The notes under the pieces were generated by a model. The model made no database searches. It saw nothing but the letters and a program-made list of their open reading frames with translations, and had not been told where the DNA came from. The position numbers were made by a program, and so were the translations under genes. This document shows positions 46,585 through 61,040 of a stretch of 64,000 nucleotides of DNA, one piece after another (position 1 is the stretch's first letter; every line of letters starts with the position of its first letter). The DNA is from Thermodesulfobacteriota bacterium (GTDB lineage: Bacteria > Desulfobacterota > Desulfobacteria > Desulfobacterales > C00003060), in NCBI GenBank assembly GCA_034189385.1, contig JAXHVD010000007.1, positions 32,001 through 96,000 on the forward strand, read 5' to 3'.

Positions 46585-48564
46585 CTACCAGATGTAGTCT
46601 TTGGCGGTGAGGCGTTTATCTTTGCCTGCCAGGATGTGGAGGGTGCGTATCTGTTTCAGCTTGATAGGTGAAAGCTGGCCGATAGGGATATAGACAATCT
46701 GTTTGCCCCACCGGGCTGCCACCTGTTTGACAAAGGACCTGGGTGGCGATTTGCTCACATAGACGACGTGCTTTTCCACGCTGTACTCCAAGCCGGCCAG
46801 AAGCAGGCGCTCTGCTTTTGTCCTGGCCCAGTGGTACTCAGGGTCTCCCCAAACGTCGGCAAGGCGAAGGGGTGGATAGGTCATGAGGGCGCCTCCGTAG
46901 GTGCACCTTGAGATTCCGGGGCCCACAATGTGATCGGCCGGGTCCGTGGCATAGAAGGCCATGTCTGATTCCTGGTCGTGTTCTCCCAGCCATGTCATGT
47001 GGTAGGGGTACTTATCCCCTGTGCTGTCCTCATCAAAGATGATGATCACAGAGCCTACGCCCCCCTTGATCCTCTTGAACTCTTTGACGTAGATACGGCC
47101 CTCGTGGATGTGGCGGGCCGTCTCCCGCATGTCTATTCCGTCCAGGATGGTGGTTTCAAAGGGGAGACTCACCGCGTCATCGGCAGACAATACGTGGGCC
47201 CCCTTGGTCTTTAGAAAATTGCCGTAGTCCTCAATGACCAGGTCTTCAGGGGGATAGGAACAGATGTAAGGGTCCTTAAAACCTTCAAGCCATTCTCCTG
47301 GCCTGCGTTCCTTGATTCGGCGCTTTTTGGGGATGTACACGGGTCGGCGCTTGATCCTGGGAAGCCTTCTTCGGATGTGGACTTTCCGCGTGCCCAGCCA
47401 CAGCATGTCTCCTTTCATGCGGATGGTGGCCGCCGAAGAGTGGGCCTTCTGCCACGGGTAAAAGGAGCCCAGACGCCAAAAGGCATAGCAGAAGTTATCA
47501 TCCACACACCCCTTGGCCGCAATGAGGAGCTGATAAAAATCGGCTAGGAGCCGATTTTCCATCAAGGCATAGTTTCTTGAAAAGCGAAAAAAGGCCCGTT
47601 TCTGCCAGGGGGTGACCTCCTCACCAGTGTCCTGGTGATAGTGACGGGCCGCTTGCTCAAAGAGGCGTAGACTGACGATCTGGCGGTCCACTGGGCCTGG
47701 TTTCATATGGTGCACGCTCCACCTGATGGATGCATCCAGGGCCTCCTCTTCAGAGCAGGTCTCTTTTCCTCCACTCATCAAGGTGAGCACGCCCATCTTC
47801 TTTCTGACCGTAAACTGAGAGAGTTGCGGCTCCGGCGGCAGGGCGTGCCTCCGGTATTCATAGGTGGCGGCCAAAAAGGGGAACTCCGTTGAGACCTCGG
47901 AAAGATCGTCAGGGTGAACATTAAAGAGGCTTACCCCCGTGCGTTTCAATCTTTCAAGGGGCTCGGCCTGGGGCCGAAAAAAGGCTTCTCTTACGCCTTG
48001 AAGATGGGCCAGGCCGCAGACAAAGAGGACCTTGTCGTGTTTGGCAGCGAGTTTTTGCAGCCGATAGGCCATTCCAGCCTCGCGCCTGAGGTCTGCAGGG
48101 CCCTTCTTTAGCCCGGCAACTGCCTGCCGGGCGTAAATCTCGTAAAAGGCTTGGATGCCCAATCGATGAGCTGCGTAGGTATCTGGTACGTAATCCCGGT
48201 AGGAAGGGTATTCGTCTAAATCCAGGTCCACGAAGTAAATGGGGATGCCGGCCTCCAGGCCAGATCGGATGGCCTCTGTGAGCGGGTCCGTGGGTTCGAT
48301 AGGAAGATAGATGCTTTGGTCTCTGCTGTTTTGGTAAAGGACTACTGATATCTCAGGGAGTCGGCGTACACCCTTTTCCACGACACCCTGAAGGGATTGG
48401 GGCAGTTCAACGGCAACGGCATCCGGTCTGATGTGCCGGAACATGTCCCGCAGGCCGTCGGCAAACTCCAGGCTGTAGTGGACCACCGGGGCAGGGTGGA
48501 TCGGACCGAAGGGTTCTAGCAATGAATGAGGCATGTCTGTCTGCAACCGTTCACTGTTTACCAT
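46585..48564 (-). CDS. Conserved hypothetical protein with TraB/ChaN-like N-terminal region, partner of the MoxR ATPase
   Basis: PVVH, RPDAVAVELP, RREAGMAYRL, VLFVCGLAH motifs; 659-aa ORF directly downstream of the AAA gene. Confidence 0.7.
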   Translation of the reverse strand: MVNSERLQTDMPHSLLEPFGPIHPAPVVHYSLEFADGLRDMFRHIRPDAVAVELPQSLQGVVEKGVRRLPEISVVLYQNSRDQSIYLPIEPTDPLTEAIRSGLEAGIPIYFVDLDLDEYPSYRDYVPDTYAAHRLGIQAFYEIYARQAVAGLKKGPADLRREAGMAYRLQKLAAKHDKVLFVCGLAHLQGVREAFFRPQAEPLERLKRTGVSLFNVHPDDLSEVSTEFPFLAATYEYRRHALPPEPQLSQFTVRKKMGVLTLMSGGKETCSEEEALDASIRWSVHHMKPGPVDRQIVSLRLFEQAARHYHQDTGEEVTPWQKRAFFRFSRNYALMENRLLADFYQLLIAAKGCVDDNFCYAFWRLGSFYPWQKAHSSAATIRMKGDMLWLGTRKVHIRRRLPRIKRRPVYIPKKRRIKERRPGEWLEGFKDPYICSYPPEDLVIEDYGNFLKTKGAHVLSADDAVSLPFETTILDGIDMRETARHIHEGRIYVKEFKRIKGGVGSVIIIFDEDSTGDKYPYHMTWLGEHDQESDMAFYATDPADHIVGPGISRCTYGGALMTYPPLRLADVWGDPEYHWARTKAERLLLAGLEYSVEKHVVYVSKSPPRSFVKQVAARWGKQIVYIPIGQLSPIKLKQIRTLHILAGKDKRLTAKDYIW

Positions 48565-48690
48565 GAACCTTTGTGAGCCCAGCAGCGACGGCTTCAGCTG
48601 TTGCTCAAACCAAAAAGGCTTGAACGTGTTTGGGGCTTTTCCGTCTGTTTCTACCGGTGAACGGACAACGGTACACGGTGAACCTTTACT

Positions 48691-49524
48691 CTATGTCTCG
48701 TACCGCAAGGCTTCATCACCCAGAACATTGACAATGCCGCAGTGAATGGCTTCTTTCTGGGTCATCCCTGTGGCCCGCATCATCTTGAGGGCGTATCTGG
48801 CCATATTGATGCCGTCGCGCACAGAATAGACCTCATCGGCCATGTGGGCACGCTGGAGAAAATCGACCATGTAGTTCAGGATGTCCTCATCGGCAAAGGG
48901 AAGGTTTTCTTTCAGGATCAGGAGTTCGTCCTCCCTGTCCGGAAAATCGACGAATATCTGAGGCTGGAGCCTGGAATGAATGTATTCAGGGATCTCATAA
49001 GTAGAGGCATCTTCGTTAATGGTGACCACAAACCGGAAGTGCGGGTGGGCCGATATGGTCAAACCGGTGATGATGGACTCCACATATCGTCGATCGTCCA
49101 GGAGCGGGGCAAGCGATGCCCACGATTTTTCGCTCATCCGGTTTCCCTCGTCCAGGATACAGACCCCGCCCCGTACCATGGCTGTGACCAGAGAACTGGC
49201 CGCGTACTTGACCTGGCCTTGCCCACCCATCACAGGGGTGATGATGAGGTCCTCGGGTCGGGTGTCCATGGTGGCCTGAAATAGATAGACGGGTCGATTC
49301 AACTGCTTGGCTGCAGCATACCCCAGGGTCGTTTTGCCTACCCCTGGTTTGCCTGAAAGGCGTGGGTTGAATGGCACGTCCTTTTCGTCGATGACCATCC
49401 ATGCGGCCAGTAGCTGCTTGATGAGTTCCTTTTGACCCACCCATTTCAAGGGCAGCTCCGCCGGTTGGGCCAGCATAACTTCCAATGACCCCATGGTCAC
49501 GCTTTCGCTTGTTTTAGATTTCAT
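48691..49524 (-). CDS. MoxR/CbbQ-like AAA+ ATPase
   Basis: GKPGVGKT, ILDEGNR, HPHFRFVVTIN, SRL, SVRD. Confidence 0.9.
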   Translation of the reverse strand: MKSKTSESVTMGSLEVMLAQPAELPLKWVGQKELIKQLLAAWMVIDEKDVPFNPRLSGKPGVGKTTLGYAAAKQLNRPVYLFQATMDTRPEDLIITPVMGGQGQVKYAASSLVTAMVRGGVCILDEGNRMSEKSWASLAPLLDDRRYVESIITGLTISAHPHFRFVVTINEDASTYEIPEYIHSRLQPQIFVDFPDREDELLILKENLPFADEDILNYMVDFLQRAHMADEVYSVRDGINMARYALKMMRATGMTQKEAIHCGIVNVLGDEALRYET

Positions 49525-51714: not shown

Positions 51715-53001
51715 CTATTCTTTTTCCCATCGGAGGAGTTCGGTCACCTCGCTAAGGGTACTCCCCGCCTTGATTTCCTCCCGGATGCGGTTTTCCTTTT
51801 CCAATACGTCCATGGCACGGTTGGCATATTCCGTGGCCATTGATTTCGGCAGGACCACCACACCGTCACCGTCTCCCAAAATCCAGTCACCGGTTTCCAC
51901 TTTTCGGTTTCCCACGATGACAGGCACACCAATCTCTCCTAACCCTTTGGGCTCCCCCGCGTTGGGCATGATCAACCTGGCAAAGGCGGCAAACTTGAGC
52001 TCCGTGATGTCAGGGGTGTCCCTGATGGCCCCATCTATGACCACCCCTGCGAGGCCCCTCTGGATGGCCGAATGGGTAGCCAATTCTCCCCAGATGGCTG
52101 GCCCTACACCGCCGGAGTCAATGGCCAGAACATCGCCCTCTTCGGCAACATCAATGGCTTCCACCGGTTTGGCCCAGTCTCCCGGATAGGTCCTTACCGT
52201 TAGGGCCCGGCCCACGAGTCTGATCTCTGGAAAGAGAGGCCGCAGGCCCTCCATGACGCCGCCTCGATGCAAGGCATCTGATAGGTTGGCTGCGGAGACC
52301 ATCTGTAGAATGCCTCGGATCTCTGGCTCAGATCCTCTTTTGAAGAGCTTGGTGGGGATGGCGACCATCTTTTCCATGGCCGCCTTGATGGTGTTGGCTG
52401 CATCCTTGGGATCAACGGCCTTTGTGATGGCTCCGCCCACGATGACGACCGATGCCCCTGCCTCTAGGGCGAGAGAGGCTGTTTCGGAATTGATTCCCCC
52501 AGCTACCCCTACAGGGAGGGAAACATTCTCCACAACACGGCGCAAGGTTTCAAAGGGGTCTTTTCCTTCCATTTGTTCGTCTATGGAACAATGGACGGTA
52601 ACATAGTCTGCGCCAAACCTCTCGACCTCCTTGGCCCGCGATACAGGGTCTTTGACAGCAATAAGGTCCACCACGATCCTGGCCCCGTAATTCTTGCCCG
52701 CCTGTATGCATTCGCGGATCGTAGGATCACTTGCTGCCCCTAGGACATCGACAATATTGGCTCCGGCTTTGGCGGCTGCTTCAACTTCCACTCGGCCAGC
52801 ATCCATGATTTTCATATCGGCCATAATGGTTGCCCGCGGAAAGCGTCTCCTGAGTTCCCGCACCGCTTCAACCCCTTCACTCTTTATCAGGGGCGTTCCG
52901 GCCTCAAGCCAGTCCACCCCGCCCGCAACAGCGGCCTCAGCATTTTTTACGGCCCGCTTGAGATCCACAAAATCAAGGGCCAATTGCAGCACCGGTTTCA
53001 T
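51715..53001 (-). CDS. hxlA: 3-hexulose-6-phosphate synthase fused to an RraA/MenG-like domain
   Basis: LQLALD, LEAGTPLIKSEG, ADMKIMDAG..E, VAGGI, IVGGAI; C-terminal NLSDA..GRALTV..WGEL..VIDGAIRD..GD.DGVVV. Confidence 0.92.
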   Translation of the reverse strand: MKPVLQLALDFVDLKRAVKNAEAAVAGGVDWLEAGTPLIKSEGVEAVRELRRRFPRATIMADMKIMDAGRVEVEAAAKAGANIVDVLGAASDPTIRECIQAGKNYGARIVVDLIAVKDPVSRAKEVERFGADYVTVHCSIDEQMEGKDPFETLRRVVENVSLPVGVAGGINSETASLALEAGASVVIVGGAITKAVDPKDAANTIKAAMEKMVAIPTKLFKRGSEPEIRGILQMVSAANLSDALHRGGVMEGLRPLFPEIRLVGRALTVRTYPGDWAKPVEAIDVAEEGDVLAIDSGGVGPAIWGELATHSAIQRGLAGVVIDGAIRDTPDITELKFAAFARLIMPNAGEPKGLGEIGVPVIVGNRKVETGDWILGDGDGVVVLPKSMATEYANRAMDVLEKENRIREEIKAGSTLSEVTELLRWEKE

Positions 53002-53039
53002 CTTTGCACCTTCACAACCATAGATTCTGAGCCAACATC

Positions 53040-53597
53040 TCACTCCAAGTTGGCATGCTGGTCCAATAGGGGCCTAGGGTCACTGCCCTGCCTCTGGTAT
53101 AGCCCCAACACAATCGTCTCCAACAACACAAAGGCCGCTTGCTCAAAAAGAGACCCAGGGGGTTGTATCGATTTGAAATTTTTAGGATAATCCCTCTTTG
53201 ATCCCCCTGGAAGGAAGAGCCTGTAGTCCACCGCTCTTCCAATAGGGGAGTTTTCTACACCGACAACGCCGTAGGTTGAGGCCCCATTGCCGGAGGCCAA
53301 TCTAACCCACTGATAGGTCCATATCGTCTCGCCCGAACCGGAGCAAACAACGAGGACGTCTTCCTTCGTGATCCCCGGAGTGATGGTCTCGCCTACAAAG
53401 AAGGCCCCATATCCCAGATGCATGAGACGCATGCAGAAACAGCGCAGGACATATCCTGACCTTCCGTGGGCCGCGCAGAAGATCCTCTCTGCCCGGTCAA
53501 GCCCTTGTACAAAACGCCCAACCGATTCTTCTGACACCCCGACAAGGGTGGCTTCAGTTTCCTTTGTGACGGCCTCAATAAGACCTTTTATGTCCAT
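53040..53597 (-). CDS. hxlB: 6-phospho-3-hexuloisomerase (SIS domain)
   Basis: GRSG, MRLMHLG, VGETITP, SGSGET, GSLFEQ, HANLE C-terminus. Confidence 0.92.
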   Translation of the reverse strand: MDIKGLIEAVTKETEATLVGVSEESVGRFVQGLDRAERIFCAAHGRSGYVLRCFCMRLMHLGYGAFFVGETITPGITKEDVLVVCSGSGETIWTYQWVRLASGNGASTYGVVGVENSPIGRAVDYRLFLPGGSKRDYPKNFKSIQPPGSLFEQAAFVLLETIVLGLYQRQGSDPRPLLDQHANLE

Positions 53598-53616: not shown

Positions 53617-53783
53617 TTGAACCGAATAAGCGAGTGCAGCCCCCGTAGGTTCTGCCTTGCGGCAGTGCTCTGCGTGCTGCGTGCTTAGCGAGCGTATAGT
53701 TAAAAAGATTACAACCTTACGGTGAACATTCCCCGTGGGTTCTGCCTGACGGCAGTGCTTCGCAGGCCACGGGGAGGGTTCAA
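53617..53783. repeat. Dispersed REP/MITE-like element, copy 2
   Basis: Ends TTGAACC..GGTTCAA; the CCCCGT.GGTTCTGCCT...GCAGTGCT unit occurs twice; homologous to 32899-33041. Confidence 0.85.
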
Positions 53784-54017
53784 TTCAGAACCACGCCCCT
53801 TTAGCTCATATTCCCAGATGCAACCCCCAAGGGACTGAACCCAGCCGGTGACAAGTGCCAGATCGTTGCCGAGCATCACCTAAAGGGTCAAGGATTCGCC
53901 ATGACAGAGGTGTTCATTCCAGAATGAAGCAGGCATTTTGAGATTCTATTTCTTAAAAGACTATAGGAAAGTGGCCCAGGAGTCAATCGTATAGGGGGGG
54001 CACCAAGAAACTTGGCC

Positions 54018-54046
54018 TTGACTTTTTGTTGACATGTCTGTATTTT
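54018..54046 (+). promoter_or_regulatory. Putative sigma70 promoter for the thrS operon
   Basis: TTGACT-17 nt-TATTTT upstream of thrS. Confidence 0.45.
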
Positions 54047-54224
54047 GCTCGCACTCTTTAAGGGGCCGAAACGTTTTGGGGGCCTTGAGGTGGAAGAAGA
54101 GATTAAGGAGGAGCAGTTTAGGCTATGTTCTAATGATCGGAATACATGAAGGCATCTGGAAAGGGGTCCCTTCAGATGCCTTTTCTGCTTTCTTAGATCG
54201 TGGCTGCTGTCTGAGCAAGGGGCT

Positions 54225-56096
54225 ATGCGGATTCTTCTTATACATGCAGACAGATTTTCATTTCGGGTAACAGGTGAGACTTCTGTGGCGTTGCCGACGG
54301 AACTCGATAAGGCAAAATCGGAGGACGAAGTCGGTGAAGCCCTGGTGGTTTTTGTGGCTGCTGAAAAGGGCGATGAGACCAATATCGGTTCCGTCGTCGA
54401 CCAAGTCACAGAAGAGGTCTTTGGTCTAGCCTCACAGGTGGGCATAGAGACCCTGGTGATCTATCCCTATGCCCATCTTTCGAGTGCACTCAGCTCCCCC
54501 AGGGTGGCTGTGAAGCTCTTGGATGCCATCTGCGGGCGCATTGAGGGCCAGGATTCCTTCAAGGTGGTACGTGCCCCCTTTGGCTACTACAAAGCCTTTG
54601 AAATCTCGTGCAAGGGCCACCCATTGTCTGAGTTGGCAAAGACCATTACACCAGCCGGCCGCGCTGAGAAGCCATCTGGAGAGGGAGAGTCTCAAGCCAT
54701 TGTGGCAGAGAAGAGCCTTGAATCTGAATGGCGTGTCATGACCCCCGGTGGGGACCAAGTACCTGCAGAGGATTTTTCTTTTGCCAAGCGGCAGAATCTG
54801 GAGCGGCTGTTCAGGTACGAGAAATCTGGAACGCGCACCTCTGACCGGGTCCCCCCCCACATCGAGTTGATGCGCCGAATGGAACTGGTGGACTATGAGC
54901 CCGGCTCTGACCAGGGCAATTTCCGCTGGTATCCAAAAGGGCAGTTGATGAAGCGCCTGGCCGAGACGTATGTGTCTAATCTGGTCAGAGAGCTTGGGGG
55001 CATGCAGGTAGAAACGCCGATTATGTATGATTATCAGCACCCAAAACTCAACCTCTACCTTCAGCGGTTTCCGGCGCGACAGTACGTCCTCCTTTCAGGC
55101 GAAAAGGAGTATTTTCTACGCTTTGCGGCGTGCTTCGGACAGTATCTGATTCAGCACGATATGCAGATTTCTCACCATCACCTACCCAGCAAGCTTTATG
55201 AGTTGACCCATTATTCTTTCAGGAGGGAGCAGTCCGGGGAGCTGGCTGGGCTAAAACGTTTGCGCACGTTCACCATGCCAGACCTCCACACCTTGGCCAG
55301 GGACATGGAGCAGGCCAAGGAAGAATTTGCCCGTCAGGTGGATTCGGCCATTAAGTGCATGGAAGGCTTTGGCCTTGAATTCGAGGTGGCCATCAGGTGT
55401 GTTTCCGATTTTGGTGAACAGCACAGGTCTTTTCTGGAAGCAATTGTCTCACGATGTGAAAGGCCCGCCTTGATGGAGCTGTGGAATGAGCGCTTTTTCT
55501 ATTTTGTGACAAAACTCGAGTTCAATTTCATCGACGCCTTAGACAAGGCCGCTTGTCTGGCAACCGTGCAAATAGACGTTGAAAATCCACAGAGATTTGA
55601 CATAACCTATATTGATCATCAGGGTGAGAAACAGTATCCTCTGCTTCTACATGCTTCCATATCCGGGTCTATCGACAGGGTCCTTTATGCCATTTTGGAG
55701 ACCCAGGCGATGCGCATGAAGAGAGGACAAAAGGCCTCCTTTCCCTTTTGGCTGGCCCCAGTGCAGCTGCGCATCATTCCGGTCTCGGAGAAATTCGATG
55801 AGCCTTGCAGGAAAATATTGCCAGAGATTCCCTATCGCGTTGATTATGACGACCGCGATATCACCATGGGACGAAAAATAAGGGAGGCAGAGAAGGAATG
55901 GGTTCCCTATATCGTCGTCATAGGGGCAAAGGAAGTAGTTGAAGGGTGTATGAGTGTTCGAACCAGAGATGGTGTGCAGCGAAAGATGACCGTGTCTGAG
56001 CTCTTGGCTGAGATGGAACCCCAGCTGGAGGGAAAGCCATTCATGGGCCTTCCTTTGCCGCAAGAGCTTTCCAGGCGTCCCATATTTGTCGGTTAG
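54225..56096 (+). CDS. thrS: Threonine--tRNA ligase, archaeal type
   Basis: Archaeal editing domain (MRILLIH, YPYAHLS, RAPFGYYKAF.ISCKGHPLSEL); FLRFAACFGQ; SFRREQSGEL..RLR.FTMPD.H; LH.S.SGSIDR; anticodon-binding domain; first gene of the infC operon. Confidence 0.95.
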   Translation: MRILLIHADRFSFRVTGETSVALPTELDKAKSEDEVGEALVVFVAAEKGDETNIGSVVDQVTEEVFGLASQVGIETLVIYPYAHLSSALSSPRVAVKLLDAICGRIEGQDSFKVVRAPFGYYKAFEISCKGHPLSELAKTITPAGRAEKPSGEGESQAIVAEKSLESEWRVMTPGGDQVPAEDFSFAKRQNLERLFRYEKSGTRTSDRVPPHIELMRRMELVDYEPGSDQGNFRWYPKGQLMKRLAETYVSNLVRELGGMQVETPIMYDYQHPKLNLYLQRFPARQYVLLSGEKEYFLRFAACFGQYLIQHDMQISHHHLPSKLYELTHYSFRREQSGELAGLKRLRTFTMPDLHTLARDMEQAKEEFARQVDSAIKCMEGFGLEFEVAIRCVSDFGEQHRSFLEAIVSRCERPALMELWNERFFYFVTKLEFNFIDALDKAACLATVQIDVENPQRFDITYIDHQGEKQYPLLLHASISGSIDRVLYAILETQAMRMKRGQKASFPFWLAPVQLRIIPVSEKFDEPCRKILPEIPYRVDYDDRDITMGRKIREAEKEWVPYIVVIGAKEVVEGCMSVRTRDGVQRKMTVSELLAEMEPQLEGKPFMGLPLPQELSRRPIFVG

Positions 56097-56234
56097 GGTG
56101 GCAAAAAGGGTTGTCTGAACCTCTGGTTTTGTAGTAATGGCTTCTAGGCAATGGCATTCCATTGACGGCTGCCATCGACAGGTGACAGAAACGATTCACA
56201 AATAGCGATTCACGCATTCAAGGAGGTGAAGGGT

Positions 56235-56741
56235 ATAGCCAAGCGCATTAATGTAAACCGAAGGATTCGGGCCAGAGAGGTACGGTTGATAGACGCTGAC
56301 GGTAAGCAACTGGGGGTTGTGCCACTGAGGCAGGCCTTGGAAACAGCAGAAGAGCGCGGACTTGACCTTGTTGAGGTTGCCCCTCATGTTAGCCCGCCGG
56401 TCTGTCGGGTCATGGATTATGGACGATACAAGTACCAACAAAGCAAGAAGCTCCAAGAGGCCAAGAAACGGCAGTCAGGTTATCAAATCAAGGAGATAAA
56501 GATCCGTCCCCTGACCGGGGAGCATGACGTACAGGTCAAGCTGCGCCATATAAGACGGTTCTTGGACCATCGGGACAAGGTGAAGGTTTCTCTTATGTTC
56601 AGGGGAAGGGAAATAGCCTACACTGAGCTTGGGACGGCCATTCTTAAACGAGTGGCTGAGGAAACGGCGGACATCGCCAATGTAGAACAGGAAATGAGAA
56701 GGGAAGGTCGCCACATTTTCATGGTTCTTGCCCCGAAATAA
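56235..56741 (+). CDS. infC: Translation initiation factor IF-3 (ATA start)
   Basis: EVRLI..G.QLG, LDLVEV, PPVCRVMDYG, KEIK, KVKV..FRGRE; AGGAGG 8 nt before an in-frame ATA. Confidence 0.95.
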   Translation: MAKRINVNRRIRAREVRLIDADGKQLGVVPLRQALETAEERGLDLVEVAPHVSPPVCRVMDYGRYKYQQSKKLQEAKKRQSGYQIKEIKIRPLTGEHDVQVKLRHIRRFLDHRDKVKVSLMFRGREIAYTELGTAILKRVAEETADIANVEQEMRREGRHIFMVLAPK

Positions 56742-56926: not shown

Positions 56927-57124
56927 ATGCCAAAGATGAAGACAAACCGAGGGGCGGCCAAACGCTTCAAGACCACGGGGACGGGGAAAGTAGTCTATGC
57001 AAAGTCCCACGCAAACCACATTTTGACAAAGAAAACCAGGAAGAGGAAGCGGGCACTTCGAAAGTCCAATATCGTTGACAAGACCAATAAGGCCGCATTA
57101 AAACGCCTGATTCCATACGCATAA
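56927..57124 (+). CDS. rpmI: 50S ribosomal protein L35
   Basis: [21 protein letters not shown]. Confidence 0.98.
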
Positions 57125-57269: not shown

Positions 57270-57623
57270 ATGCGAGTCAAACGAGGATTTAAGGCAAGGC
57301 GGAGGCGGAAGAAGATATTGAAGCTGGCCAAGTCTTACCGAGGCGGCCGGAGTAAGCTTTATCGTACGGCAGCCGACGCAGTGGACAAGGCCCTGCAGTA
57401 TGCTTACAGGGATCGAAGGGCTCGGAAGCGAGATTTCAGGAGGCTTTGGATCGCCAGGATCAATGCAGGGGCGCGACTCAACAACCTGTCGTACAGTCGG
57501 CTCATCAGTGGATTGAAGCGGGCACATATAGAAATCGATAGAAAGATACTTGCCGAACTGGCTGTTTCAGATCCGAAGGCATTTTCTGAACTGGCCACTA
57601 TTGCTGTTGGCCCAGGCGCTTGA
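57270..57623 (+). CDS. rplT: 50S ribosomal protein L20
   Basis: [36 protein letters not shown]. Confidence 0.98.
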
Positions 57624-57671: not shown

Positions 57672-58679
57672 GTGAAGAAAAGACTCCAAGAATTGGAACA
57701 AGAAGCCTTGAAGGCCCTGAAGGCAGCCAATGACGTGGAAGGGCTAAAGGCATTACGGATTCAGTACCTGGGGCGCAAGGGGGCTGTGACCCAGTGTCTG
57801 CGCAAAATGTCCACTCTGCCGTCTGAAGAGAGGCCTGTCGTTGGGCAACTTGCCAATGAGGTGAAGGCAAGGCTTGAGGCGGTCTTCGAGCAATCCCTGA
57901 AAGGCCTGGAGGCAGAGCATGAAAGGCCTGAGGGGGCATTGGATGTGACGTTGCCTGGACGGCCTGCCGCTCGCGGGCGGCTCCATCCCATTACGCAAGT
58001 CACAGAGGCGATCTCCGGGATTTTCAGGGGGCTGGGTTTTGAGGTCGTGGAAGGTCCTGATGTGGAACTGGACTACTACAATTTTGAGGCCCTCAACATT
58101 CCAAAGGATCACCCCGCCCGCGACATGCAAGACACCTTTTATATCTCAGACAATATCGTATTGAGGACACACACCTCCCCGATCCAGGTTCGCGTCATGG
58201 AAAGGCAGCCGCCCCCCGTGCGGATCATTGCCCCTGGCAAGGCCTACCGCGTTGATTCGGATGTTTCACATACGCCCATGTTTCAACAGGTTGAGGGATT
58301 GATGGTGGACGAGAACATATCGTTGGGCAACCTCAAGGGGATTCTCACCACTTTTGTCCATCAGATGTTTGATGAGGAAACCAGCCTGCGCTTTCGTCCC
58401 AGCTTCTTCCCCTTCACGGAGCCGAGTGCCGAGATTGACATACGCTGTGTCATTTGTCGAGGAAAGGGCTGTCGGCTATGTTCCCATACCGGCTGGCTCG
58501 AGGTCCTAGGCGCCGGCATGGTGCACCCCGCTGTCTTTGAAATGGTAGGCTATGATACGGAGCGGTACACGGGCTTTGCCTTTGGAATGGGCATTGAACG
58601 CATCGCTATGCTCAAGTACGGCATTGAGGATATCAGGAAATTCTACGAAAATGATATGAGGTTCCTTGAACAGTTTTAG
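57672..58679 (+). CDS. pheS: Phenylalanine--tRNA ligase alpha subunit
   Basis: HPARDMQDTFY, LRTHTSP, FRPSFFPFTEPS, CVIC..GC..C, GFAFGMGIER. Confidence 0.98.
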   Translation: MKKRLQELEQEALKALKAANDVEGLKALRIQYLGRKGAVTQCLRKMSTLPSEERPVVGQLANEVKARLEAVFEQSLKGLEAEHERPEGALDVTLPGRPAARGRLHPITQVTEAISGIFRGLGFEVVEGPDVELDYYNFEALNIPKDHPARDMQDTFYISDNIVLRTHTSPIQVRVMERQPPPVRIIAPGKAYRVDSDVSHTPMFQQVEGLMVDENISLGNLKGILTTFVHQMFDEETSLRFRPSFFPFTEPSAEIDIRCVICRGKGCRLCSHTGWLEVLGAGMVHPAVFEMVGYDTERYTGFAFGMGIERIAMLKYGIEDIRKFYENDMRFLEQF

Positions 58680-58740
58680 TTAGTGTCCATCCAGGAACGC
58701 CCTCCTCCAGACAATCTCAACGCTTCCTTTTGTGTATTTC

Positions 58741-58815
58741 TGAACCGAATAAGCGAGCGCATTCTCCACAGGAGAGCTACCGCAGGCCCCGCGGCTTTCC
58801 ACAGGGAGGGTTCAA
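58741..58815. repeat. Dispersed REP/MITE-like element, short copy 3
   Basis: TGAACCGAATAAGCGAGCGCATT..GGGAGGGTTCAA ends match copies 1 and 2; the interior is deleted. Confidence 0.75.
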
Positions 58816-59041
58816 TATTTTTCTCCAATTTGGTTGGGGAAAGGGCTTCAAATCCTCAGGGTCACCCCAACTCTTTTGGAGATGATCCAGAAATGCTCAC
58901 TGTTTGATCTGCCGCGGCAGAGAGGTTTACCATTTTAGCTGACCGTCTCAGGGGCGCCTAAAATGGTCAAGGCGTGAGCAAACTTGACTTTTTACGAATC
59001 CATCAATGGTTGGGCTTTAGAAAAGTGGACATGGTGAGGAA

Positions 59042-59069
59042 GGGGCAACCAGGGGGGGCTGGTTGCCCC
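59042..59069 (-). terminator. Strong hairpin downstream of the small minus-strand ORFs
   Basis: GGGGCAACCAG/CTGGTTGCCCC 11-bp perfect stem; no long U tract. Confidence 0.5.
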
Positions 59070-59087
59070 AGTTGAGAGAGGAGGTAA

Positions 59088-59228
59088 TCAGGGGTACATG
59101 CGGACGTAAAGCCTTGACTTTTCCCAGAAGGACATGATGCGCCGGGCGTATTTCTTCGGTAGAATCCTCACGAGCCGACAATACAGGTGCAGGGCATTGA
59201 GGTGGTGATGTAAGAAGTTTCTCACCAT
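59088..59228 (-). CDS. Small basic protein, 46 aa (MVRNFLHHHLNALHLYCRL...)
   Basis: AGAGGA RBS; start overlaps the end of the upstream ORF; below the ORF-track length cut-off. Confidence 0.6.
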   Translation of the reverse strand: MVRNFLHHHLNALHLYCRLVRILPKKYARRIMSFWEKSRLYVRMYP

Positions 59229-59428
59229 ATGCTCATCCTCTGTTTGCCATGCTGCCAATGGGATCCACCATAGGCGCAGAAGGATTGGCTCAGTTTGCTC
59301 TCCCCTTTAGTTTTTGGAAACGAGCCGGTACTTCCGCCCACTAGGTCTTCCCATTGACAGGCAGGGCAGACATAACGGGTTGTGAGATCCTCACATAGGG
59401 ACCGCTGCATCGTTTTTTTTACTTTCAT
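59222..59428 (-). CDS. Small hypothetical protein with CPAC motif
   Basis: 68-aa ORF overlapping the next start; weak support. Confidence 0.35.
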   Translation of the reverse strand: MKVKKTMQRSLCEDLTTRYVCPACQWEDLVGGSTGSFPKTKGESKLSQSFCAYGGSHWQHGKQRMSIW

Positions 59429-59500
59429 ATAAATCTCTAGACCCCTGTTGGGACGAGCTCAGGAAAACCCCAAAAACCCGGCCCAGGACGGTGCCGTTGC

Positions 59501-59740
59501 TTACCGCCACTGCTGGTGCTGGTAGACAGGTTGATCCTCGTAAATCCGCTGAGGCCTCCCCTGGCAAAATGGACAGGCACCAAATTCTTCTGTGTTGAAC
59601 CAGGTTGAACAAATGGGGCATTTCCCGGAAGGGGAACTGCTGGCTTGAGGCTTCTTTGCCTGAGGTCTCCTGTGGTGCCCACGCCTCCACGTTTTACCTG
59701 GGGCAACAGGAAGTCCACACCCACAAGCACAGGTTTTCAT
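59501..59740 (-). CDS. Small Cys-rich zinc-finger protein (CACGCG..GH, CPIC..CPFC)
   Basis: AAGGAGG RBS before ATG 59740; two putative Zn-binding motif sets. Confidence 0.65.
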   Translation of the reverse strand: MKTCACGCGLPVAPGKTWRRGHHRRPQAKKPQASSSPSGKCPICSTWFNTEEFGACPFCQGRPQRIYEDQPVYQHQQWR

Positions 59741-60284
59741 GGCCGCCTCCTTTTTTTGGGGTTCCGATACCAATGGTGACCTCCCGCCCCAACGCCACAG
59801 CCCTTTTCATTTCAGGATGGACCCAGATTCAGACTCTGTGGCCAGGCTCTGACAGGGGTAAGGCGTATAAGTCCATACAGTAAGTATGTAAATAACAATA
59901 AATTTGTGCCTTGTCAAATAAATTTTATTAAATTATACATAATTAATTATAAGTGGGCACATATTGTATGTCCTGTTATGTGTTTATACGCTATGTGGAT
60001 AAGACCCTTAGAAGGGTGCTCAAAAAGGCGGTCAAGGGGCCGTCCGTTTTCTGATAGACCCAAGGCTTGTTCCAGTCCGCCTTCGGCGGATTCACCAAGA
60101 TTGGCGGGCAGAAAAGCCTGTTAGAGAAAGGCCCAAAGGGATTTGCGTTTGGACAGAAGCCCGCAAGGGTTTGACAGGTCTTGTCATTACGGATAGGAAT
60201 ACCTGTCAAGAATCGAATAGGAGCGCTTCCGGTGCCATTTGCAATCCTGTTGCCTCGTCTTGTCACCGTCTGGAGAAGGGCCTC

Positions 60285-61040
60285 ATGATGCACTTCCACA
60301 GTCTGTCCTTAAATGGACACCATGCGACGTTAGGTGAGTTGTTATCCAAATCTAAGGAAGGAGATAAGATCCTATGTATGATTACAGATCCTAGATGCAT
60401 GGGGATTTTTTACGAACTCGAATCTAGAGGAACCGACATATTTCCCCCCTTGCTTTCTCAGAGTCTGAGTCTGAGCAAGGTGCATCAGGCTCTGCATTTC
60501 ATGGATTACATGATTCCGAGTACTCAGGTTCTATTCAGAACGTCTAACATTCAGAAGCTTCTGAGAAGATATGGGGAAAGGAACATCGTGAAGACGGTTG
60601 TCAAGGAGGACCGCGGGTCAATGGGCATGGGAGACCATCCCTGCTGGTCGTTGAATGAATTGGCTTGGATGATCGTTCATGTGACACCTCTTCCTATTGT
60701 TGTGCAACCCATGCTGGAGGACTTCAGGGAGTTTAGATTGGTGGTAATGGGAGACACCGTTGTTGCAAAAGAGAAAACCGCAAGTGAGGGAGTATTTTGG
60801 AATAACAGGATATTTGGAGGGGTTACCAAATTAATAGAGCCCACCAAGGAGATCGTTGAGTTCGGAAAAGAGATGATGCGGATTGGGAAATTCCCATGGG
60901 CGTATTTAGATTTGTTTGTTACCGACACTGACACATTTTTGTCTGAAATCAATCTGTCTGGCAGTAACGCAGGAATGAAGGACTACAAGCTTAACACCTT
61001 AAAAAGAAAGATGATCGAAAAATGGTTGGCAGTCGGATAG
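60285..61040 (+). CDS. RimK-like ATP-grasp protein
   Basis: IPST, VVK..GSMG.G, VVQP, EFRLVV.G, N...GG, LDL, EIN. Confidence 0.75.
   Translation: MMHFHSLSLNGHHATLGELLSKSKEGDKILCMITDPRCMGIFYELESRGTDIFPPLLSQSLSLSKVHQALHFMDYMIPSTQVLFRTSNIQKLLRRYGERNIVKTVVKEDRGSMGMGDHPCWSLNELAWMIVHVTPLPIVVQPMLEDFREFRLVVMGDTVVAKEKTASEGVFWNNRIFGGVTKLIEPTKEIVEFGKEMMRIGKFPWAYLDLFVTDTDTFLSEINLSGSNAGMKDYKLNTLKRKMIEKWLAVG

Follow-up and report, generated by a model that had tools for sequence, protein, structure and literature searches.

An archaeal-type threonyl-tRNA synthetase that very probably displaced the native thrS in its own operon slot in a genus of Desulfobacterales

Xenologous gene displacement in situ, in which a foreign orthologue replaces a gene of an operon and the gene order is kept, was reportedly described by Omelchenko et al. 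in 2003. The two homeoalleles of threonyl-tRNA synthetase (ThrRS), ThrRS-C and ThrRS-R, are ~29% identical, and recombination between them is regarded as unlikely (Andam and Gogarten 2011, PMC3191353); in the accessible part of that paper ThrRS-R is restricted to archaea, and the routes named are gain of the gene elsewhere or recombination through syntenic neighbours. Archaeal TyrRS and TrpRS are found in bacteria of the Candidate Phyla Radiation (CPR), as stated in the accessible sections of Mukai et al. 2017 (PMC5370408). Here we describe a 64,000-nucleotide (nt) stretch of DNA, hereafter the window, from a Thermodesulfobacteriota bacterium (assembly GCA_034189385.1, contig JAXHVD010000007.1, positions 32,001 to 96,000 of the forward strand), in which the thrS gene ahead of infC, rpmI, rplT and pheS encodes an archaeal-type enzyme. 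The gene lies inside a 165-kb contig of even GC content in a genome (G000) of 4.13 Mb that is 90.4% complete with 4.2% contamination. The best overall explanation, which we hold to be very probable, is that a housekeeping archaeal-type ThrRS displaced the native thrS in its own slot; that the gene is a functional replacement in situ is, as judged from sequence, nearly certain.

The gene and the parts of its product are located as follows.

54225..56096, + strand: thrS, a full-length archaeal-type threonyl-tRNA synthetase (ThrRS-R) of 623 amino acids (aa), identified from a single open frame, Pfam and NCBIfam; the only thrS found in G000
54225..54647, + strand: D-aminoacyl-tRNA deacylase (DTD)-like Ser-tRNA(Thr) editing domain, residues 1-141 (PF08915, 149 bits; alignment to PDB 2hl1/1y2q)
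55101..55703, + strand: Pfam part of the class II catalytic core, residues 293-493 (Pfam; alignment to Escherichia coli ThrRS)
55764..56093, + strand: anticodon-binding domain (residues 514-596) and archaeal-type C-terminal tail (Pfam; alignment to E. coli ThrRS)

A first-pass annotation had read an archaeal DTD-like editing domain at the N-terminus, archaeal-style catalytic and C-terminal motifs, and bacterial flanking genes, all of which were borne out. Pfam assigns tRNA-Thr_ED to residues 1-141 (149 bits, cut-off 30), together with tRNA-synt_2b and HGTP_anticodon, and detects neither TGS nor tRNA_SAD in the protein. The motifs YPYAHLS (residues 80-86), APFGYYKAF (117-125), CKGHPLSEL (129-137), RFAACFG (299-305), FTMPDLH (349-355) and PLP..LS.RP.F (610-621) are all located in the 623-aa frame, and the infC, rpmI, rplT and pheS products, encoded on the same strand, each exceed their profile cut-offs. 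The NCBIfam model PRK03991 matches the protein with 782 bits (cut-off 484) over model positions 1-612 of 613, vs 468 bits for TIGR00418; the bacterial ThrRS of G043, the genome that represents the sister lineage of the genus, shows the opposite (215 vs 734 bits). The N-terminus matches solved archaeal editing domains with an E value of ~1e-31, and no solved catalytic core more than ~30% identical was found. In the ThrRS trees, which were built on 90 rows (85 plus 5 bacterial-type) and on 49 rows (IQ-TREE with an approximately unbiased, AU, test), the protein groups with ThrRS-R and not with bacterial ThrRS, the 85 rows being set apart from the 5 bacterial-type (ThrRS-C) rows with support of 100. 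All 11 alignment windows over residues 176-623 are nearer to Glassbacteria (36-84%) than to the bacterial ThrRS of G043 (7-46%), which indicates that the enzyme is foreign end to end; a bacterial core shuffled with an archaeal editing domain is rejected on the same count. The crenarchaeal trans-editing protein ThrRS-ed was also dismissed (PRK14938, 190 vs 362 bits), as the catalytic core is present.

The residues expected of a working enzyme are in place. C303, H355 and H476 align with E. coli C334, H385 and H511, which we take to be zinc ligands; R333 and R485 align with R363 and R520 (the motif 2 and motif 3 arginines), and R553, E570 and R579 with R583, E600 and R609, for which we assume the catalytic-arginine and anticodon-binding roles of the E. 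coli enzyme. Y121, Y122, K123 and E136 align with Y119, Y120, K121 and E134 of Pyrococcus abyssi, which are discussed as editing-pocket residues in the accessible part of PMC4491819. In the borrelidin pocket, Y278, M351, N454 and S478 stand in place of E. coli H309, Q381, L489 and A513, the alignment around H309 (Y278) being less certain. Archaeal ThrRSs are borrelidin-resistant according to the accessible portion of PMC4389257, which names Gln-to-Met and Ala-to-Ser changes, and both occur here as M351 and S478. Borrelidin insensitivity is thus predicted from family knowledge, and the altered inhibitor sensitivity that had been proposed holds as far as these archaeal pocket residues go. By the same family knowledge, the zinc site would bind Thr and mis-activate Ser, the C-terminal domain would read the anticodon, and the DTD-like domain would clear Ser from tRNA-Thr in cis. 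The mode of action of the enzyme is most likely that of archaeal ThrRS-R.

Free-standing tRNA-Thr-ED proteins are known from Desulfobacterales (Mukai et al. 2017, PMC5424206 Text S1); they have the same Pfam domain as ThrRS, but only ~135 aa. One such 135-aa protein is encoded in the source genome (G000:C23:193386-193790, L002:1498-1905, minus strand; PF08915, 122 bits), where it adjoins a radical SAM gene, and a canonical DTD is encoded separately. Short tRNA-Thr-ED frames occur in 61 of the 388 other genomes of the order, with no common neighbour in 11 loci. An origin of the ThrRS editing domain from these proteins was rejected, since they share 24-30% identity with it and the equivalents of K121 and E134 are missing.

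The archaeal-type gene is a trait of the genus, whose members are uncultured sediment bacteria that reduce sulfate. The family consists of one genus with 37 genomes including G000; the 36 relatives were screened and 29 loci were fetched. An archaeal-type ThrRS is present in 31 of the 36, two of them as split frames (G003:C79:273-2152 and G024:C250:12823-14620) that are likely assembly errors, as the gene is essential. No bacterial-type thrS was found in any of the 36, and the five genomes devoid of any ThrRS are 65-85% complete. The congener proteins are 74-83% identical, and infC follows thrS at 26 of the 29 loci, the other three ending at contig edges; neither a thrS elsewhere nor an empty slot was seen among these loci. 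A second bacterial thrS, which the first-pass annotation had suggested looking for, was found neither in the relatives nor in the 90.4% complete source genome, where the sole tRNA_SAD domain lies in an 879-aa frame, an AlaRS by its size. Among 401 genomes of the order (13 of them genus members), only those 13 carry the editing domain in a frame longer than 600 aa, and among 401 genomes of the phylum the PRK03991 cut-off is passed by one, G000 itself. Records titled 'Desulfobacterales bacterium C00003060' and 'S7086C20' also carry archaeal-type ThrRS and group with G000. The order C00003060 corresponds to SEEP-SRB1c in the accessible part of PMC11237511, and Seep-SRB1c (non-syntrophic) together with Seep-SRB1g is placed as sister to the other Desulfobacterales in that of PMC10553843.

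The slot itself is older than the gene that now fills it. Bacterial thrS is followed by infC at 29 of 29 phylum loci, 26 of which have tRNA-Val(GAC) upstream. Within the order, thrS and infC lie apart at 19 of 20 thrS loci and 29 of 30 infC loci; the exception is G043, which retains the order tRNA-Val(GAC), bacterial thrS, infC. In a species tree of InfC+L35+L20 (77 rows, repeated on 37 of those rows under a mixture model), G043 is sister to the genus (support 95 and 92), the core families fall into a clade of their own (99 and 97), and infC, rpmI and rplT of the window are native. The ThrRS of G043 groups with the in-slot enzymes of the phylum (mean identity 62%). Because the sister lineage and the phylum keep a bacterial thrS in the same slot, an in-place displacement of the native thrS in the stem lineage of the genus is supported, in agreement with the earlier proposal of an in situ displacement with the operon position kept. 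Co-transfer of the operon from the donor is unsupported, as infC-rpmI-rplT is native and the donor loci are non-syntenic. In the core Desulfobacterales (L036-L055, L166-L195) thrS has left the infC operon. The core-family ThrRS is a separate group, 51% identical to that of G043, 50% to the in-slot phylum enzymes, and nearer to none. As their ThrRS groups apart and thrS sits off the slot, the core families have probably acquired a different bacterial ThrRS in another location, probably in a second and independent replacement within the order.

The donor was sought among homologues, of which the best 80 of 418 loci were kept. After the genus itself, these are sequences with Glassbacteria/Gemmatimonadales titles (60-62%) and Eisenbacteria (56-58%), then Hydrogenedentota, Acidobacteriota, Gemmatimonadota and untitled bacteria (54-57%), and archaea (45-54%); a protein search at the 50%-cluster level returned distant rows only. 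A search from the nearest archaeal sequence retrieved Hydrothermarchaeota, Altiarchaeales and Methanofastidiosum, at most 56% identical to the window ThrRS. The bacterial ThrRS-R, among them those of Eisenbacteria, Gemmatimonadota and Hydrogenedentota, form one clade nested among archaea (support 99 in both the 90-row and the 49-row tree), in which the genus is sister to Glassbacteria (98 and 92, respectively), and a topology that joins the genus with Hydrothermarchaeota is rejected (p-AU 1.5e-7). In the Glassbacteria-titled class, 11 of 13 genomes pass the PRK03991 cut-off and one more carries the gene in two pieces; a record titled 'archaeon' was counted as bacterial because it belongs to this class and clusters with Glassbacteria. 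A single thrS is present in 32 of the 34 donor-side genomes (33 bacterial, one archaeal); one has both types and one an extra fragment. The genome with both a bacterial- and an archaeal-type thrS is Acidobacteriota-titled (G523, L133), a possible coexistence stage or a binning mix. With up to 4 kb of flank inspected, infC was found at none of the 33 bacterial donor-side loci; at two of four donor-side infC loci (L205 and L206) tRNA-Val(GAC) stands directly before infC and the thrS slot is empty. One of these also contains an L20-leader-like RNA (L206:2042-2298, minus strand; RF00558, 41.6 bits, below the 58.7 cut-off, E 7e-5). It is highly probable that the immediate donor was a bacterium related to Glassbacteria and that the archaeal crossing came earlier. 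Of the cross-domain displacement suggested in the first-pass annotation, the archaeal type of the enzyme stands; the direct archaeal step probably does not, as the transfer more likely passed from bacterium to bacterium.

The left junction is marked by a conserved leader element.

54149..54184, + strand: ancestral host leader hairpin GGCATC...GATGCC with a T-run, terminator-like (pattern search, covariation)

The hairpin lies 44 nt upstream of the thrS ATG, and its strict pattern occurs once in G000. When strict and loose patterns were applied and loci with <60 nt of upstream sequence were dropped, it was found upstream of thrS at 24 of 27 congener loci, at the single sister locus (G043, 1/1) and at 18 of 27 phylum loci with bacterial thrS, against a chance rate of 0.014 per 450 nt for the loose pattern. 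None of 19 core-order and none of 15 archaeal loci has it, and the E. coli leader lacks it too. Alignment of 33 of the 40 distinct copies revealed compensatory changes in 5 of 11 pairs, the core letters being uninformative on covariation because they are fixed by the search pattern. The loop is not conserved and varies from 4 nt upward, and in some congeners the stem ends just 15 nt from the ATG. The persistence of the host hairpin 44 nt before the foreign ATG suggests a swap that was nearly precise to the open reading frame (ORF). The hairpin matches no Rfam family, T-box or leader matches were obtained at none of 8 loci, and short Thr-rich leader ORFs occur at 4 of 41 loci without conservation; its identity as a T-box, Rfam family or Thr leader peptide is thus unsupported. 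Nor does it behave as an element of tRNA-Val, being unseen 3' of tRNA-Val(GAC) in G000 or two core-order genomes, or of infC, being untied to thrS or infC in five core-order genomes. Taken as a whole, the 191-nt leader has no folding advantage over shuffled sequences (z -1.35). With the features of the E. coli thrS operator as we presume them, nothing of that type was seen before or after the swap and the hairpin has no conserved loop, so the claim of altered thrS autoregulation is unsupported. We lean slightly towards a putative terminator-like damper between an upstream promoter and thrS, the alternative being a processing or binding site.

The discriminator base of the substrate tRNA shows no change. 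U73 is present in all three tRNA-Thr of G000 and in 161 of 166 matches to a tRNA-Thr 3'-half pattern in 58 genomes (9 genus, 16 order, 19 phylum and 14 donor-side), the other five being not tRNA-like by eye. As recipients and non-recipients alike carry U73, the base is older than the swap; tRNA co-evolution at position 73 is unsupported, and the altered tRNA recognition that had been proposed was not seen. The editing domain of Methanosarcina mazei hydrolyses only archaeal Ser-tRNA-Thr, which the accessible part of PMC11295145 tentatively ascribes to U73, making a prior U73 a plausible licence for the transfer. Separately, ARAGORN calls a second tRNA-Gly(CCC) in the source genome (G000:C15:17252-17329), whose acceptor stem is Arg-like and unlike that of the other tRNA-Gly; it is possibly degenerate or mis-called.

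We propose that one early transfer of ThrRS-R from an archaeon to bacteria would have been followed by a later transfer from a Glassbacteria-related bacterium to the lineage of the genus. The incoming ORF may then have been inserted beside the old thrS under the resident leader, the old gene being deleted afterwards; insertion and deletion are favoured because homologous recombination is hardly to be expected at a protein identity of ~28% and with donors that are non-syntenic. The swap may have been tolerated because the host tRNA-Thr already had U73, and a promoter past the new stop may have kept infC-rpmI-rplT expressed. Each of these last three steps has about an even chance. An intermediate stage with old and new thrS in tandem was not seen in the loci examined. 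Borrelidin insensitivity may have been a selective gain; a neutral swap fits equally. The sequence that could serve as the promoter is the following.

56111..56138, + strand: promoter-like motif right after the thrS stop, candidate for infC-rpmI-rplT, present at 21 of 27 genus loci including G000

This motif is absent in G043, at all 29 phylum loci and at all but one of 29 core-order loci. It is only a candidate promoter: the genus loci themselves supplied the pattern, and a consensus scan was silent.

Several other explanations were weighed. An assembly chimera or a contaminating archaeal contig would be in keeping with the 4.2% contamination of G000 and with the lack, among the matches listed, of a contig that joins the thrS stop to infC with a margin of 31 letters at both ends. 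However, 26 of 29 independent congener genomes, at 74-83% protein identity, have the same thrS-infC junction, so the locus is not chimeric; moreover, the gene lies inside a long contig of even GC, two public DNA runs cover 30 of 30 bins of the locus (the best holder may be the source sample), and one public contig spans the hairpin and the ATG with zero differences. This explanation is refuted by the congeners and was rejected as having practically no chance. On read continuity across thrS-infC, which the first-pass annotation had asked to confirm, the congeners carry the weight; no contig bridging the stop and infC is among the matches listed. Direct transfer from an archaeon, for example a methanotrophic or other sediment archaeon, has on its side the archaeal type of the gene, its nesting among archaea and a wider group that includes partners of methanotrophic archaea (accessible part of PMC10553843). 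Yet the bacterial ThrRS-R are closer (60-64% vs at most 56% for archaeal sequences) and form a single clade at 99, the grouping with Hydrothermarchaeota is rejected, and no sequence labelled as anaerobic methanotrophic archaea (ANME) was found among the best 80 loci or the best 120 proteins, the trees being built without ANME rows. Such a direct step is very improbable.

The placement of the gene could also stem from homologous recombination in the conserved flanking tRNA-Val and infC, the donor being a bacterium, extinct or not yet sampled, that already had ThrRS-R in the slot; this is the second route named in the accessible part of PMC3191353. It gives a simple account of the precise placement, and the tRNA-Val(GAC)...infC frame does occur at two of the four donor-side infC loci, albeit with the slot empty; but none of the 33 bacterial donor-side loci is syntenic, infC, rpmI, rplT and the hairpin are native with stem ends as near as 15 nt to the ATG, and the event in situ is merely shifted to another lineage. 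We consider it unlikely. A two-step course, with gain of the gene elsewhere, loss of the old thrS and a later move of the newcomer into the vacated slot, finds parallels in the core Desulfobacterales and in donor-side bacteria, which show gain elsewhere and loss; as the trees give neither order nor direction, it is grouped here with transfer from the genus to Glassbacteria. Congeners, however, show neither a thrS elsewhere nor an empty slot, and the hairpin was not found at core-order thrS, nor as a hairpin before infC there, so that the two-step course requires a hairpin that survived without a thrS behind it. Together these two options are distinctly unlikely, and displacement of the native thrS directly in its slot, by a gene from a bacterial donor, is preferred.

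Several points weigh against this preferred explanation. The grouping of the genus with Glassbacteria, at 92, is unstarred in the IQ-TREE run; the trees are silent on direction, and the status of the genus as recipient rests on parsimony. A nearer or a syntenic donor could lie outside the best 80 of 418 loci, and the 29 phylum loci, a non-random draw, are those that scored highest among 400 with the archaeal model. G043 is a single genome standing for the sister lineage, the species tree rests on ~350 columns, and all genomes are incomplete and resemble metagenome-assembled ones. The hairpin pattern has no match at 3 of the 27 congener loci and at 9 of the 27 phylum loci; its matches at 4 of 33 donor-side loci are all to one homologous stretch, not a hairpin, ~300 nt upstream. 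The P. abyssi domain deacylates E. coli Ser-tRNA-Thr in vitro (PMC4491819, accessible part), the accessible parts of PMC13433404 and PMC11295145 are at odds on which archaea need U73, and gating of the transfer by U73 is not demonstrable, because all sampled non-recipients have U73. Finally, the role of the protein as a working enzyme is read from its sequence and family knowledge.

The remaining features around thrS are listed below.

53040..53597, - strand: hxlB, divergent upstream neighbour (profile match; context, outside the transferred unit)
54018..54046, + strand: sigma-70-like promoter candidate upstream of the leader (9/12 consensus; weak)
56235..56741, + strand: infC (IF3), TIGR00168, 226 bits; native by tree
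56927..57124, + strand: rpmI (L35), over its profile cut-off
57270..57623, + strand: rplT (L20), over its profile cut-off
57672..58679, + strand: pheS, bacterial type, TIGR00468, 350 bits

The probable start of infC is the ATA at 56235, 7 nt past AGGAGGT, where the ORF finder gives GTG at 56226; the AGGAGGT-to-ATA spacing (window 56221-56237) is the same in the genus loci and G043, and an ATA start presumably fits the non-canonical start of IF3. The G+C content at third codon positions (GC3) of thrS, 0.60, is inside the range of its neighbours (0.55-0.67). tRNA-Val(GAC), which precedes thrS at 12 of 29 congener loci, is not upstream of thrS in G000; hxlB is upstream at 7 of 29, standing where tRNA-Val(GAC) stands in other congeners. 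In the window, hxlB and a hexulose-6-phosphate synthase/RraA fusion are divergent from thrS (51715-53597, minus strand; PRK07028, 582 bits, cut-off 593). The sigma-70-like candidate is one of a count not above that of shuffles, with a similar stretch seen by eye at two congener loci. On co-transcription of thrS with the operon, a single RNA run yields 8 short contigs, the presence of the organism in that run being not established. No pheT-sized ORF follows pheS in the window, to which the search was confined (58680-60170: short frames); a RimK-like ATP-grasp gene lies beyond these frames at 60171-61040. A dispersed repeat at 53621-53790 comprises two copies of 29 nt, spaced by 90 nt, together with an inverted repeat of 16 bp, and resembles a repetitive extragenic palindrome (REP) or a miniature inverted-repeat transposable element (MITE); it gives 68 BLAST pieces on 22 contigs of G000 and a depth of ~1500 vs 40-150 nearby (two runs). 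Further upstream, a MoxR-like AAA ATPase gene is followed by a 659-aa gene with a weak DUF5682 match (46585-49524, minus strand).

Bacterial carriers of an editing-domain ThrRS were visible by 2017: the accessible part of PMC5424206 contains, in Fig. S4, a Magasanikbacteria 'Threonine-tRNA ligase' with a tRNA-Thr-ED domain, on which no comment was seen. No description of ThrRS-R in the bacteria treated here was found in the open-access literature, subscription journals being mostly uncovered; nothing on bacterial ThrRS-R appears in the accessible parts of PMC8821087 and PMC11580382, and the supplementary trees of these two and of PMC10553843, which lie outside the literature search, could contain such sequences. 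ThrRS-R membership, displacement in situ and archaeal synthetases in bacteria are kinds of things already known. As far as the open-access search reaches, ThrRS-R as the sole enzyme across several bacterial groups is new, as are the in-slot position with a sister control and the leader hairpin. Taken jointly, and tentatively, the results may mean that an archaeal ThrRS-R allele circulates as a bacterial homeoallele and is the sole ThrRS within parts of several anoxic-sediment phyla, that its entry needs a host U73, that the genus swapped nearly ORF for ORF at ~28% identity without flanking donor homology, and that a phylum-wide hairpin control is independent of the ThrRS type. ThrRS-R has long been an archaeal marker, with editing and borrelidin resistance taken as domain-specific, and bacteria living on ThrRS-R alone would break this rule; caution is advised when thrS or PF08915 is used for binning or phylogeny. 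The order offers a three-way natural experiment: G043 keeps the native enzyme in its slot, the genus has the archaeal type there, and the core families carry another bacterial ThrRS elsewhere. Two ideas are open to experiment, in-place swap of an essential gene without homology and a single tRNA base deciding host acceptance, and the conserved hairpin offers a starting point for studying how thrS is controlled in Desulfobacterota.

Compared with archaeal ThrRS-R (PRK03991/NF003068; PDB 1y2q, 2hl1 and 4rrf; P. abyssi and Methanocaldococcus jannaschii), the enzyme has the same domain order, editing pocket, catalytic motifs, C-terminal tail and borrelidin-pocket substitutions, but its host is a bacterium in which it is the sole thrS found and stands in a bacterial operon. 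As with the ThrRS homeoalleles of Andam and Gogarten, one type ousts the other and each genome keeps one; in contrast to them, the exchange is between bacterial phyla. With the gene in the slot rather than elsewhere and the sampled donors lacking synteny, neither route in the accessible part of PMC3191353 fits plainly. The archaeal TyrRS and TrpRS of CPR bacteria likewise replaced bacterial synthetases, but tRNA identity is archaeal there, whereas no tRNA change is seen here because U73 was already present. Unlike in earlier cases of displacement in situ, the sister lineage and the 5' hairpin bound the swap to little beyond the ORF.

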